The translations under genes and the position numbers were made by a program. The notes below the pieces were generated by a model that ran no database searches, was not told the origin of the DNA, and saw only the letters and a list, made by a program, of their open reading frames with translations. From NCBI GenBank assembly GCA_036574205.1, contig JAINCQ010000031.1, forward strand, positions 1 through 25,745: a DNA stretch of 25,745 nt. Direction: 5' to 3'. Origin of the DNA: Elusimicrobiota bacterium. GTDB taxonomy: Bacteria > Elusimicrobiota > Elusimicrobia > Elusimicrobiales > UBA9959. Below are positions 9,968 to 20,809 of the stretch, one piece after another (the first letter of the stretch is position 1; each line of letters starts with the position of its first letter).

Positions 9968-10897
9968 ATGAAAGGAGTTAAAATTATAATTACAATATTT
10001 TTATTAAGATTTCCTTTTGTTTGTTTTGCGGGAGAAGGAACTACTACCGCAAATTTTTTAAAGTTTTCTTATTCTGCCAGGCAATCCTCGCTTGCTGGGG
10101 CTTATAGCGCTATTGGAGATGATTCAAATGCTATTTTTTCAAATCCTGCTGGAATAATAGATGCTGAAAATAAACAACTTGGGGTTGGCTTTGTAAATTA
10201 TTTATTAGATTCAAAGTCAGGATTTATCTCATATAAAACCCAGGCCAAAAATTCTGATATTGCATTTGGAGTTATTGGATTTGAGGTGGATTCCATTGAC
10301 AAAAGAACAAAGGATTATGAAGGGATTGTTCCTTCAGAAGGGAGTTTTAATTCTACTGATATGTCTTTTTTATTTGCGTATGCAAAAAAAGATTTTGCAT
10401 CATCTTTGCTTGATAATTTAAATGCCGGATTTGTTTTTAAGTTTATAAACTCAAAGATAGATTCTTCAAGCGCCCAGTCAATAGCTTTTGACCTTGGTTT
10501 TTTGTATAGATATTCCAGTAATATAAATATTTCTTTTGTTCTTTCAAATCTTGGAACAAAAATGAAATATGAGCAGGAAAGTGATAATATACCTTTGAGT
10601 TTAAAGGCTGGGTTTTTATATAAGATAGATAAAAAAGCCAATATTGTTGCTGAGGTTGAAGAGTTTATTTACGACGAAAAATTCTATCCATCTATTGGAG
10701 CGGAATGGTATTTAAAAGAAAGTTTTGTTTTAAGAGGGGGTTATAGGTTTGGATATGATACATCAAATTTAGGGAGTATGGTAGGATTTGCCGCTGGTTT
10801 TGGAATAATAACAAAAGAGGTTGGTTTTAACTATGCGTATGTCCCATTTGGCGATCTTGGAAATATAAATAGATTTGATATACAGTTAAAATTTTAA
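9968..10897 (+). CDS. PorV/PorQ-family (UPF0164-like) outer-membrane protein
   Basis: Signal peptide; N-terminal FLKFSYSARQSSLAGAYSAIGDDSNAIFSNPAG matches the PorV pattern FL....AR..(G/S)..A..A..D..A...NPA; ends YAYVPFGDLGNINRFDIQLKF. Confidence 0.85.
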   Translation: MKGVKIIITIFLLRFPFVCFAGEGTTTANFLKFSYSARQSSLAGAYSAIGDDSNAIFSNPAGIIDAENKQLGVGFVNYLLDSKSGFISYKTQAKNSDIAFGVIGFEVDSIDKRTKDYEGIVPSEGSFNSTDMSFLFAYAKKDFASSLLDNLNAGFVFKFINSKIDSSSAQSIAFDLGFLYRYSSNINISFVLSNLGTKMKYEQESDNIPLSLKAGFLYKIDKKANIVAEVEEFIYDEKFYPSIGAEWYLKESFVLRGGYRFGYDTSNLGSMVGFAAGFGIITKEVGFNYAYVPFGDLGNINRFDIQLKF

Positions 10898-11115
10898 TTT
10901 TTTAATCTTTGTAGGACTTTTATTCCACTTATTGTTAGGTCAAACTTAATTGAAAAGCAAATATTAATCTTTTAAAATATAATCGGAGGTGTGTTATGAA
11001 AAAATATTTTTTGACAGTATTAAGTGTGTTTTTGACTCTCAGTCTTTATTCTCAAATAGAGGAAGTAGAAATTAGCCAATAAAGGAAACTGAGATTTTAA
11101 ATCCTTCTCCAAAGC
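10651..11115 (+). repeat. 465-bp direct repeat, copy 1 (porV 3' end, intergenic, signal-peptide leader)
   Basis: Matches 12220-12684 (offset 1569) with 6 substitutions and no indels by manual comparison. Confidence 0.97.
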
Positions 11116-11675
11116 CTTCAATTGCAAGAAAAGAAACTAGTTATTTGAGTTTAAATAGGTCAATAAAAAACACTATAAGCCGTTGTGAAAGGGAGAAGAA
11201 AAATCCGATAATAATAGAAAATCTCAAAAAACTATTTATTTATGGAACTTTTGAAGAAAAGATGGATTTTATAAATTCTACTTCTTATGTATTTCCTAAG
11301 AGATTTACTAACTTAGAGCTCAAAGATGGGTTATTGTTGGAGTCTACAAAAGGCCAACTGCAGGTATGTGAGGAAACGAATTGTAGGGTGGTAGAAGACT
11401 GTGCTATTAAGAAAAGATGTGAAGTTGTTACTGGATGTTTGTGTAGCGGGATTATAGGACTTATAGGAGTTTACGTTTGTAAAGATCCTGTAATTGGATT
11501 TATAGGAAGCGCTGCTAGTGATCCAATTTGTACCCTTGTAGAGGAAGAAGTTTGTGAAGATGTAAAAGAATGTGATAATGTGTTAAAATGTGATACTATT
11601 TGTCACTGGGAAAATAGTAGTGATATACAACATGGAGAATGTGTTAATACTCCCTATGGAATGCTTTGTCAATAG
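10996..11675 (+). pseudogene. Secreted Cys-rich protein, frameshifted after the signal peptide (cargo ORF 11145..11675)
   Basis: GGAGG + ATG 10996 gives MKKYFLTVLSVFLTLSLYSQIEEVEISQ* (stop 11080-11082). The -1 frame from 11076 continues PIKETEILNPSPKPSIARKETSY into the 15-Cys ORF. Confidence 0.7.
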
Positions 11676-11690
11676 TTTAGAGGAGAAATT

Positions 11691-11918
11691 ATGAATATTA
11701 TCAAAAGGTTACATAACGATAAAGAATTTAATCATCCTTTTGTTCGTATGAGTAGTATGTGGTTAACAGGAATCTTTCTAATTTTTTATCTAAAACCATC
11801 TGAGAAATATGGTTATTTGAAAGGATTCTTCATAGCACTTATTGTAGCACCATTACCTTATTTTTTATGTATGTTTATTCTTGGAGGTTTATATAAAATA
11901 GTTAAACGGTTGAGATAA
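11691..11918 (+). CDS. Small two-TM membrane protein (75 aa), candidate immunity protein
   Basis: SD GAGGAG, 15 nt after the Cys-rich ORF; two hydrophobic segments; basic C-terminus. Confidence 0.7.
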   Translation: MNIIKRLHNDKEFNHPFVRMSSMWLTGIFLIFYLKPSEKYGYLKGFFIALIVAPLPYFLCMFILGGLYKIVKRLR

Positions 11919-11980
11919 AAGAATATCTTTTGTAGTCGATAAAGTGGAGGTAAACTGCGGGTTTAAGAAATATGGGTAGC

Positions 11981-12219
11981 AAAACCGTTAAACACTTTTA
12001 CCGGTATTTTAATCTGGATGTGTCATTTAACTTGTTTTAATCTCTTTTATCCTTTCTTCTAATATTTTACCCAAATACGTTCATTTTGGGAAAAATCTTT
12101 GTATAAGTCTGTTGATATTCTCTATCGTCCCTTTCTAACTATGATACGGCAAAATATCAAAAACATATTAGACAGATTTAAGAACAAGAAATTACAGAAT
12201 GATACTTGTAGATTATTTG
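11981..12219. repeat. Degenerate relative of the dispersed intergenic element at 13270-13345 and 20285-20495
   Basis: AAAACCGTTAAACACTTTT and TGTCATTTAA..GTTTTAA are shared with 20285-20357; CAAAATATCA.AAACATATT.G..AGATTT is shared with 13270-13299. Confidence 0.65.
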
Positions 12220-12466
12220 TGAGGTTGAAGAGTTTATTTACGACGAAAAATTCTATCCATCTATTGGAGCGAAATGGTATTTAAAAGAAAGTTTTGTTTT
12301 AAGAGGGGGTTATAGGTTTGGATATGATACATCAAATTTAGGGAGTATGGTAGGATTTGCCGCTGGATTTGGAATAATAACAAAAGAGGTTGGTTTTAAC
12401 TATGCGTATGTCCCATTTGGCGATCTTGGAAATATAAATAGATTTGATATTCAGTTAAAATTTTAA
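12220..12466 (+). pseudogene. Duplicated 3' fragment of the porV-like gene (about 81 codons)
   Basis: Encodes EVEEFIYDEKFYPSIGAKWYLKES...DIQLKF*; one E>K change; no start codon. Confidence 0.85.
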
Positions 12467-12684
12467 TTTTTTAATCTTTGTAGGACTTTTATCCCACTTA
12501 TTGTTAGGTCAAACTTAATTGAAAAGCAAATATAAATCTTTTAAAATATAATCGGAGGTATGTTATGAAAAAATATTTTTTGACAGTATTAAGTGTGTTT
12601 TTGACTCTCAGTCTTTATTCTCAAATAGAGGAAGTAGAAATTAGCCAATAAAGGAAACTGAGATTTTAAATCCTTCTCCAAAGC
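12220..12684 (+). repeat. 465-bp direct repeat, copy 2
   Basis: Near-identical to 10651-11115. Confidence 0.97.
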
Positions 12685-13226
12685 TATCTATAGATTTGAA
12701 ATACTCTCAAAAAGCCTATACAAACATATGGATGAATGTTTATTTTAATGAATCTATAAAAGAGATAAGTGGCTATGATTATTCAAAAAGAATAGAGGTA
12801 AATCTAAGGAAGGCTTTTGAAGGAGAGTTTAATGGGAGCGTAAATGTGGAGAATAAATTTGAATGGATTAATATAAGAAAATTTGGCGATTCAATCAGTT
12901 TTTCAAATGCTTCTGGAAATCTAAATGCTAATAAATGGGGGGACAATTATTCCATAAGTGGAAACATAAAAGGCGAGGATGGAAAATATAAGTATATAAG
13001 TCTTACAGTATATAAAAGATTTTCAGATGAATTTTCTTTTGCTATAAATTCATATGGTATAAATATCTATTTTGATAAGTATTCTGTAAATGGTAATTTT
13101 GATGAAACGCTATATTCCAAAAAAACTATTGCTTATATAACATCAATGATTTTTGCAATAGAAATAGACTCAATAAAAAGCAATAAAGCAAATATCCAAA
13201 TAAAAGAAAATTATCTTTTAAACTAA
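12565..13226 (+). pseudogene. Secreted beta-rich hypothetical protein, same frameshift after the signal peptide (cargo ORF 12696..13226)
   Basis: Identical 28-aa leader from ATG 12565 to TAA 12651; the -1 frame gives PIKETEILNPSPK then LSIDLKYSQKAY..., an unrelated Cys-free cargo. Confidence 0.7.
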
Positions 13227-13447
13227 ACTCAATTATTGAGATCTGCTATTAATAATTTGTTTTTTATTGCAAAATATCAGAAACATATTGGGTAGATTTT
13301 TAAGGCCGCTGGAGCCGTGAAATAATATTTGTAAATCTATTGAAAAGTGTGTAATAAAAAATAGATATATCTCCCATAACGAATTGACCGGCTCGGTCAG
13401 CCTGACGCTCACTTTAGGGGTGCTCAAATTGTCCCTTCCTCTTAAAT

Positions 13448-13656
13448 CTCCTCACTCTGACCCTCTCCAAAAAAGGAGGGGGAAATTTGTGTAACAGGAA
13501 GATAGATGCTCTTTAGAATTGAAAATAGCATAAACAAGTGTTAAAATCCCTTCCCCCTTGATGGGGGAAGGTGAAGGATGAGGGTGAAAAATTAAATCAC
13601 TTTGCTGACACTTGTTTCCCTCTCCCTTGATGGGAAAGGATTAAGGTGAGGGTGAA
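13448..13656. repeat. Cluster of three BoxC/REP-like palindromic repeats
   Basis: 13448-13482 CTCCTCACTCTGACCCTCTCC-AAAAAA-GGAGGGGG, facing two opposite-orientation units at 13547-13588 and 13617-13656 ending TGAGGGTGAA. Confidence 0.8.
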
Positions 13657-20214: not shown

Positions 20215-20605
20215 TTTTCTTATCTAATTGCTAAAATAATTTAAAAAATTTTGCATAATTGATAGATTCAAAGAGTAAGGACAAAAAACCGTTAAACACT
20301 TTTGTTAGTGTTTTAAAACATAGATATTTTTTGCTTTGTCATTTAATCAGGTTTTAACTTCTTTCTTATTATACGCCAGATATCTCTGTTTTGTTACTCT
20401 GGTGTTTTAAACTTATGTGTCACTAAAACTACATTATTGGACAGATCTTTAAGGATGTTGAGCCGTAGAATAATATTTGTAAATCTATTGAAAAATACGT
20501 TTAAACACCAGACTGATTGGCCCCGTTGTCTAAGATATTTTGCTTTCAAAACAACATCCACTAATTTTACACGGCCGTAGTTAAACTGTGGATAATTGTT
20601 TTTTT

Positions 20606-20632: not shown

Positions 20633-20650
20633 GTCCTTCCCCCCTTAAAT

Positions 20651-20809
20651 CTCCTCACCCTAACCCTCTCCAAAAAAGGAGAGGGGATATGTATAGCAAG
20701 GAGATGAACATTGAAAAAAAATAAATGAGTAATAAGATCCCTTCCCCCTTGATGGGGGAAGGTGAAGGATGAGGGTGAAGAAATGGGAGAGGATTAAGGT
20801 GAGGGTGAA
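20651..20809. repeat. Second cluster of BoxC/REP-like palindromes, paralogous to 13448-13656
   Basis: CTCCTCACCCTAACCCTCTCC-AAAAAA-GGAGAGGGG 20651-20686; 43 bp at 20737-20779 identical to 13546-13588; half unit 20783-20809. Confidence 0.8.

Follow-up and report, generated by a model that had tools for sequence, protein, structure and literature searches.

A probable microhomology-level duplication-insertion behind a PorV/PorQ-family gene of an Elusimicrobiota bacterium yields a chimeric and probably dead gene for a secreted protein

The 25,745-nucleotide stretch of DNA analysed here (the window), which represents the entire contig C22 (JAINCQ010000031.1) of the Elusimicrobiota genome G000, contains a 465-bp direct repeat that places the same upstream region and the same leader sequence in front of two unrelated protein bodies, referred to as cargo A and cargo B. 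We consider it likely that this locus is the product of one illegitimate duplication-insertion guided by microhomology, which generated a chimeric, probably dead gene, and that no cassette switch is involved. On this reading, the locus represents a clear, datable example of illegitimate recombination building a chimeric gene for a secreted protein. It also calls for caution, because the combination of the same leader with a different cargo does not prove the existence of a programmed system; in the present case, the reading frame, the junctions and the relatives of the two cargos point the other way.

The two repeat copies, R1 (10651..11115) and R2 (12220..12684), both on the forward strand, are 465 bp each, follow each other with a period of 1569 bp and differ at six positions (10703, 10798, 10882, 10924, 10965 and 10991). 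The initial annotation had described this repeat, its six differences, the leader ending in ...NPSPK and the abrupt divergence behind it, and all of these features were confirmed exactly. No other copies exist in the 1.85-Mb, 43-contig metagenome-derived genome (BLAST E-values of 2.3e-244 and 3.2e-236 for the two present). Each copy begins with the final base of codon 228 of a gene of the PorV/PorQ family, runs through codons 229-309 and its stop codon, and continues with a 98-bp spacer, which carries a ribosome-binding site (GGAGG) 6 nucleotides 5' of an ATG, and with the leader; similarity between the copies ends abruptly from 11116/12685 onward. In R1, the segment consists of the 3' end of the PorV-like gene (10651-10897), the spacer (10898-10995), a signal-peptide open reading frame (ORF) and the leader; in R2, it consists of a 3' fragment of the same gene (12220-12466), the spacer, the signal-peptide ORF (12565-12651) and the leader. 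The right edge of the repeat coincides with the end of the leader motif (P-S-P-K). The gene fragment in R2 aligns to residues 225-309 of the PorV-like protein with 95% identity and one TAG codon; it lacks a usable start, and its frame is closed upstream by the TAG at 12209. At position 10703, R1 encodes Glu, as do the three displayed orthologue translations, and R2 encodes Lys; this is the single amino-acid change in the duplicated part of the gene, and it may reflect relaxed constraint on a non-functional fragment. Both copies also contain a promoter-like site (TTGAAA-17-TAAAAT), although a promoter scan found such sites to be no commoner in the window than in shuffled sequences (17 found versus 16.1 expected).

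As written, the DNA encodes the signal peptide in front of neither cargo, contrary to the initial annotation, which had placed it in frame on both. The ATG at 10996/12565 opens an ORF of 28 codons (MKKYFLTVLSVFLTLSLYSQIEEVEISQ) that is stopped by the TAA at 11080/12649; its first copy spans 10996..11082 on the forward strand, including the stop codon, with the GGAGG motif at 10985-10989 and the frameshift site at 11077-11082. The frame that enters both cargos (...IKETEILNPSPK) is the -1 frame, which is closed upstream by the TAG at 11073/12642, and the two frames overlap by only about two codons (TAG 11073 to TAA 11080). In all five full-length homologues of cargo B, the signal-peptide ORF corresponds to residues 1-29 and the -1 frame to residue 30 onward, without gap or overlap. 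The orthologue from a second genome of the same genus (G001) reads AAA ATA AAA GAG where the window reads CAA -TA AAG GAA, so that one A has been lost, and both repeat copies carry this same loss. The 20 best-scoring places of cargo B in related genomes include only two with an internal stop, namely the window and a place in one other genome. The shift site (AGC CAA TAA) does not contain a slippery heptamer of the type X XXY YYZ. Given the single-frame homologues, the lack of a slippery heptamer and the uninterrupted frame at 18 of 20 places, the shift appears to be a plain frameshift mutation shared by the two copies. Most simply, it would have preceded the duplication, and the chimera would then never have been functional. 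The cargo A chimera and cargo B are most likely both pseudogenes, with neither body being exported.

Several observations identify cargo B as the owner of the leader. Its open frame (12645..13226, forward strand) comprises the remainder of the leader and the B domain and constitutes the resident gene of the locus. Cargo B has only seven matches among 5.8 billion proteins, namely its own product, five full-length proteins of 195-212 residues and one protein of 166 residues. The five full-length homologues all have an in-frame signal peptide and the same kind of N-terminus, whereas the 166-residue protein differs, and the source of one homologue is named as a metagenome-assembled genome (MAG) of the Elusimicrobiales. 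Because all five full-length homologues carry the leader in frame, the leader is, judging from these comparisons, the native N-terminus of cargo B. The B family was found in 50 of the 79 other genomes that represent the bacterial family, whereas 147 genomes from the order's two other families contained no member. No partner gene accompanies cargo B.

Cargo A, by contrast, looks like a truncated intruder, since its relatives all start with a signal peptide of their own. The open frame of the chimeric gene (11076..11675, forward strand) consists of the leader remainder up to 11114 and, from 11115/11116 onward, of cargo A without its 5' part. When 14 members of the family are aligned, all 13 relatives possess their own signal-peptide-like N-terminus, and 12 of them show an F-D motif shortly after it, which is missing from the window copy; the latter is devoid of the first 45-70 residues and has the B leader in their place. 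The closest relative (P0002), a protein of 245 residues with its own signal peptide, is 52-55% identical and comes from a MAG labelled Bacteroidota. A paralogue with 28-30% identity lies elsewhere in the same genome (C19:57104-57739), and members of the family are present in 16 of the 79 genomes of the bacterial family.

The borders of the rearranged segments fall within genes and within repeats, and the joined sequences share only a few bases at either junction. On the left, the leader of B has TCT CCA AAG where the aligned position of the closest cargo A relative has ACG CCA AAG. At the right junction, a truncated and diverged copy of a dispersed repeat, T1 (12149..12219), is cut at about base 71, ends exactly at R2 and joins the interior of the PorV-like gene at base 10651, with an overlap of the TTG/ATTG type only. 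T1 is 78-80% identical to other copies of this repeat, termed T, over 65-73 nucleotides and matches 27 of 31 positions of a full copy, T2 (13266..13440), which is located directly after cargo B; a further copy is found at 20435-20494. The full form of repeat T measures 135-175 nucleotides. It has 26 matches in its own genome and none in the two other species of the genus, and in assembled contigs (Logan; see below) it reaches a depth of 220-390, compared with about 13 for the flanks of the locus, with many copies at contig ends. Adjoining T1 is a piece of another dispersed repeat, X (11959..12149), with four further matches in the genome (68-75% identity), of which two are situated at contig ends. 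Repeat T may be an element similar to a miniature inverted-repeat transposable element (MITE) that marks points of rearrangement; it yielded no Rfam match, and its predicted fold is not RNA-like (z-score +0.89). The similarity between 12149-12179 and 13269-13299 had raised the idea that A and B are alleles between common flanks, but this was ruled out because the shared sequence is the dispersed repeat with its 26 matches.

Comparison with other genomes points to a derived state of the locus. Six related genomes share the upstream order, in which the PorV-like gene is located behind a gene for a 2381-residue protein, and in all six the orthologous locus contains neither cargo A nor orf75, the small gene behind it. 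Cargo B lies near the PorV-like gene in only one of the six, G001 from the same genus, in which the PorV-like gene is followed by a gene for a 308-residue lipoprotein-like protein, B and panD. In the genome under study, the lipoprotein-like gene (about 300 residues), panD and coaX are instead found on another contig (C12, 365-4968), behind an ars operon. To judge from this relocation, the region 3' of the PorV-like gene is reshuffled in this genome. The 218 bp of spacer and leader DNA have no copy in the 79 other genomes of the family beyond chance matches of 20-36 bp, with no strain-level relatives among these genomes, and an exact 25-mer from this sequence gave no match in metagenome contigs.

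Together, these findings are consistent with the following course of events. The resident order would have been the PorV-like gene, the spacer and gene B, the latter encoding the signal peptide and a motif of about 22 residues ending in P-x-P-K. A foreign or paralogous segment of 1104 bp, containing the 3' three-quarters of a cargo A gene, orf75 and pieces of repeats X and T, would then have been joined to the B leader immediately after ...CCAAAG (encoding PK), while its other end, inside the T repeat, would have been joined to base 10651 within the PorV-like gene. The event would thereby have duplicated the 465 bp that separate the two junctions, giving the order flank-R-insert-R-B. This outcome could have been reached by replication that switched template at the end of the B leader, continued at an A locus and returned to a position 465 bp upstream of the exit point, or by homology-facilitated illegitimate integration, with the incoming DNA anchored on the leader and joined illegitimately within the PorV-like gene. 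In either case, A would be lost, and the ancestral order porV-R-B regained, if the two 465-bp repeats recombined through RecA. What is seen directly of this event is the arrangement of the segments, the truncated gene and repeat, the few shared bases at the joints and a state that is derived when set against other genomes.

Template switching and homology-facilitated illegitimate recombination of incoming DNA are the processes that give rise to microhomology-mediated duplication-insertions. The locus resembles this class in that an insert is placed between direct target duplications, with few shared bases at the joints, truncated features, neither a recombinase among the 26 ORFs scanned nor a target site, and a derived state. 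It differs from this class in that the donor was not found and the event is rebuilt from one end state, and in that the 465-bp target is long enough for the array to be unstable.

A number of observations weigh against this interpretation. A donor copy of cargo A with its native N-terminus was detected neither in the 95%-complete genome nor in metagenome contigs, and the data fit template switching and the integration of foreign DNA equally. The 120 bp encoding the signal peptide and leader are identical in both copies, with all six mismatches lying in the other 345 bp, although the lack of differences in the 124 bp at 10992-11115, given six in 465 bp, has a probability of about 0.2 and is not significant. 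Both cargo frames have stayed open, over 199 and 193 codons, and the fusion of the leader to A is in frame, as expected by chance in one of three cases or under selection for a working chimera. The leader motif occurs on many types of cargo in related bacteria, such that a fusion of leader and new cargo could in principle work. The order of frameshift and duplication is a matter of parsimony only, the available contigs do not phase the two R copies, and the topology is deduced from contigs rather than reads. Finally, the sequencing depth of the repeat is 18, compared with an expected value of about 21 for two copies (with six bubbles allowed for) and about 13.5 for one.

These depths derive from the Logan contigs of one public run of a hot-springs metagenome, possibly the source sample, which holds 89% of the sampled words. 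In this set, a 10.6-kb flank contig stops 30 nucleotides into R; a 1164-bp contig starts with the last 30 nucleotides of R, contains A in full and extends 30 nucleotides into the start of R; the collapsed repeat forms one 465-bp contig that has no indel and is a mosaic of the alleles of both copies; and a 696-bp contig runs from R into B. The depths are 13.4 for the flank, 14.1 for A, 12.7 for B and 18 for the collapsed R. The lack of Logan cover at 10756-11069 results from placement of the collapsed repeat on the second copy alone. It is conceivable, if unlikely, that the locus is an artefact of assembly or topology, composed either of stitched strain variants or of a chromosome with the order porV-R-B and a separate 1569-bp circle made of R and the A segment. 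The assembly is metagenomic and split into 43 contigs, the depth of R falls short of the twofold value, the stretch is covered by a single run, and the k-mer graph (flank to R, R to A, A to R and R to B) fits a tandem array and a chromosome with a 1569-bp circle equally well. However, two strain haplotypes of the types porV-R-A and porV-R-B, whose joining the initial annotation had named as a possible refutation, would require that the depths of A and B add up to that of the flank, whereas each of them equals it, and such alleles could not produce the junction between the tail of A and the middle of the PorV-like gene that is present in this independent contig set. The six differences, including the loss of a conserved Glu in a non-functional fragment, fit a real, slightly aged duplication, and a circle of 1.5 kb that lacks a replication gene yet persists at one copy per chromosome is improbable.

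The reading offered initially, a functional cassette locus in which a constant promoter and leader are provided to alternative cargos (a toxin-like A with an immunity-like orf75) in the manner of Rhs/CDI (contact-dependent growth inhibition) orphans, appears to us similarly unlikely. It has in its favour that two unrelated bodies share one identical upstream region and leader through in-frame fusion, that a small hydrophobic ORF follows A here, on C19, after P0002 and in four of five other loci, that P0002 gives weak glycine-zipper and class II bacteriocin hints, and that the leader motif is modular over at least 10 cargo clusters in related bacteria. However, the leader DNA exists in two copies only, with none in the 79 family genomes or, as a 25-mer, in metagenome contigs; B is the native owner of the leader and has no partner; the 247 nucleotides of duplicated PorV-like coding sequence and a junction within a truncated repeat would be of no use to a cassette; neither copy has the signal peptide in frame with its cargo; orf75 and the ORF behind P0002 show no similarity; and matches to toxin or immunity families were not obtained. 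Since the upstream region is complete in each copy, there is no silent gene that could be switched on. Recombination between the repeats would, as proposed initially, remove 1569 bp and leave the PorV-like gene whole, but it would not switch the cargo, because B already has a full upstream copy of its own; A would merely be deleted. The likeness to polymorphic toxin or antigen cassettes extends to the geometry of the locus and the modularity of the motif at the protein level, but not to a large delivery region, to cassettes without start and export signals of their own or to the same leader DNA with other cargos in related genomes. Even less probable, to the point that we regard it as very remote, is a programmed or bypassed -1 ribosomal recoding event that would allow both proteins to be made with a signal peptide at a regulated, low level. 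Such an event would accommodate a shift that is common to both copies, frames that overlap by about two codons and two intact bodies, but the site has no slippery heptamer, the five full-length homologues are all single-frame, 18 of the 20 best B places have no internal stop, and the change itself is the plain loss of one A.

Comparison with known systems leads in the same direction as our preferred reading, a single duplication-insertion. Rhs and CDI orphans are described as modules that lack initiation and export signals and gain them by recombination with a large delivery protein (Koskiniemi et al., 2014; PMC3967940). The locus resembles these modules in that a C-terminal body and a small gene lie beside a gene with an identical upstream stretch, and in that homologous recombination of these stretches would remove the intervening DNA. 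It is unlike these orphans in that both of its genes have a complete upstream region and leader, so that the deletion would activate nothing. Moreover, the shared part comprises 41 codons here (a 28-codon signal peptide and 12-13 further codons) plus the tail of a neighbouring gene, and no Rhs, CDI or other delivery domain was found among the 26 ORFs of the window that were scanned. Unlike in shufflons, integrons and invertible promoters, there was no recombinase in these 26 ORFs, no inverted repeat was found, and the borders lie in the middle of genes and repeats. The absence of a recombinase had been noted initially and was borne out by Pfam: of the 41 ORFs with 60 or more residues, 26 were scanned, and none of these matched a family of recombinases, integrases or transposases. 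Inverted repeats of at least 40 nucleotides do not occur in the window, and an Rfam search of its whole length gave no match at E-values of up to 0.1.

The leader itself deserves attention beyond this locus. A profile of the N-terminus of the B family revealed that the same leader is present on non-B proteins of related bacteria. The motif, of about 22 residues, can be written as [FL]E-x-[IL]-[SN]-x-x-[DK]-IK-x5-7-P-x-P, and a profile of 24 positions, built without the signal peptide, detected it in 48 of 79 family genomes at E-values of up to 0.05; at E-values of up to 0.001, 16 of 46 genomes of the family gave a match, and none of 355 genomes of the phylum outside the family did. By genus, the more permissive limit of 0.05 yielded the motif in g1, g3, g4, g5, g7, g11, g12 and g13, but not in g2, g6, g8, g9 or g10. 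In all 18 non-training matches for which the DNA was fetched, the signal peptide ends exactly at the start of the motif. Thirty leader-bearing proteins fall into 10 cargo clusters (related loci L081-L119, e.g., L081:1501-2181), comprising a family of about 290 residues (15 members), B (seven), a YkuD_2 L,D-transpeptidase (Pfam E-value 4.8e-53) and seven other singletons. A search for the leader in related genomes, suggested initially as a way to find more cargos, was thus negative at the DNA level in the 79 family genomes and successful at the level of the protein motif, with at least 10 cargo families. Leaders from the same genus on different cargos are 38% similar (15 pairs), compared with 26% for the same cargo across genera (eight pairs), the pairs being few and not independent. 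The window chimera matches the profile at an E-value of 0.0017 by virtue of its B-derived leader, and the window leader matches in two halves owing to the frameshift, with IKETEILNPSPKP corresponding to profile positions 11-23. No Pfam or NCBIfam model matched the motif, and the literature searched contained nothing relevant on an N-terminal sorting signal in Elusimicrobia. Two further ideas were considered and discarded: leader-bearing genes do not travel with PorV-like genes, since only one of 30 loci lies within 1.5 kb of one, and the motif, although suggested by a MAFFT alignment to be part of the N-termini native to the A family, matched the profile in 0 of 13 A relatives.

It is tempting to speculate, although we regard it as rather doubtful, that the leader is a clade-specific targeting module, caught here in the act of re-assorting, at its P-x-P-K end, onto a new toxin-like body with its partner. 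If this were true, the locus would illustrate a raw mechanism for the spread of such leaders between gene families, and one family of Elusimicrobia would tag at least 10 mutually unrelated secreted proteins, among which are an L,D-transpeptidase and the tubby-like B, with a sequence that shifts in step within a genus. Whether or not this reading is right, the idea of a constant N-terminus with a variable C-terminus does hold for the clade in a loose evolutionary sense. Sorting domains of the PEP-CTERM/exosortase type (PMC1569441) are likewise short, clade-restricted and fixed near a terminus of unrelated secreted proteins; compared with these domains, the leader motif differs in that it is N-terminal and directly follows the signal-peptidase site. 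Clade-limited tags on unrelated exported proteins are the type of signal that has led to new sorting machineries elsewhere, and the leader motif can now be searched for with a profile.

The two cargos differ in how well their structures could be predicted. For cargo B, a model built from 11 sequences (predicted local distance difference test score, pLDDT, of 81) shows 12 strands and a C-terminal helix. It resembles the tubby C-terminal domain and a LURP-one-type plant protein (Z scores of 9.4 and 9.2 over residues 49-201/202), whose barrels (PDB 1i7e and 2q4m) likewise consist of 12 strands around a central C-terminal helix. The likeness is slight, as unrelated models reach Z scores of 7-8 and 12-stranded outer-membrane barrels about 8. 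Cargo B is therefore described only as a predicted tubby-like barrel in a clade-restricted secreted protein; a Foldseek search with the model returned nothing significant, and leads to a 'beta-flower' fold in the Atlas (0.83-0.87) were set aside, as they were under the bar of 0.9 and unconfirmed by Pfam. In several genomes, the B domain is doubled within one open frame of about 370-450 residues (e.g., about 385 residues at G004:C51:13676-14791).

Members of the cargo A family combine a helical domain with a Cys-rich C-terminal part and a glycine-rich stretch (glycine zipper). The model of cargo A is weak (pLDDT 62) and shows a helical domain and one long hairpin. It had no Foldseek match in the PDB at E-values of up to 0.001 and no usable match in the Atlas, and the top-ranking Foldseek entries, stems of pore-forming toxins, stayed below a template-modelling (TM) score of 0.16 and were not counted. 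For P0002, Pfam gave hints of a glycine zipper (E-value 0.0016) and a class II bacteriocin (E-value 0.063), both below the cut-off. Downstream of cargo A, separated by 15 bp, starts orf75 (11691..11918, forward strand), a partner gene that encodes a small hydrophobic protein and has its paralogue beside the cargo A paralogue on C19. This paralogue (C19:58495-58758; 44% identity, E-value 3e-16), which lies downstream of the cargo A paralogue, is its sole detectable relative. Small hydrophobic ORFs also follow A relatives in four of five other loci inspected, and one follows P0002; their transmembrane character, like that of orf75, was judged by eye. Examples of the family with one or more such ORFs behind it are the window (11076-11918), C19:57104-58758 and L078:189-1188. 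Between orf75 and the ORF after P0002, no similarity was detected. Pfam and NCBIfam searches with A, B, orf75 and the small ORFs yielded nothing at E-values of up to 0.01, including any toxin or immunity family, and relaxed scans of the A and B alignments produced single-member matches below the threshold only. Cargo A and orf75 possibly form a toxin/immunity or bacteriocin-like pair.

The PorV-like gene at the left border (9968..10897, forward strand) encodes an outer-membrane protein of 309 residues that belongs to the PorV/PorQ family, as shown by its match to the NCBIfam model NF033709 (PorV_fam; 145.3 bits, cut-off 90). The initial label 'porV' is hence appropriate at the level of this broad family, but the protein remains below the cut-off of the PorV equivalog model NF033710 (T9SS_OM_PorV; 47 bits, cut-off 250) and also of the PorQ equivalog model. 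Its own genome contains 10 matches to this protein. Genes of this family are strongly multiplied in the bacterial family, with up to 41 matches in relatives compared with the 10 in G000. The gene 5' of it encodes the 2381-residue protein mentioned above, which contains CarboxypepD_reg repeats and a weak C-terminus of the CHU_C/FlgD_ig type.

Some further features of the surroundings were recorded. Repeat T has a sharp 5' edge (GCAAAATATCAGAAACA...) and, in most copies, a perfect hairpin (GGACTGACCG...CGGTCAGTCC), and a 37-bp match to its start is present in another genus (G014 C34:120-156), just downstream of the orthologue of the PorV-like gene. The ars operon on contig C12 was recognized by eye from translations and appears to comprise arsR, a methyltransferase gene, arsC and an ACR3-type gene. 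Further downstream in the window, two composite repeats rich in guanine and cytosine (13438-13591 and 20641-20782), 87-91% identical and about 7.2 kb apart, flank an arsR-tusA-Qmo-like-dsrE block, and each of them is followed by a gene of the ArsR family (13769 and 21066). This block could be a duplicated or mobile unit.

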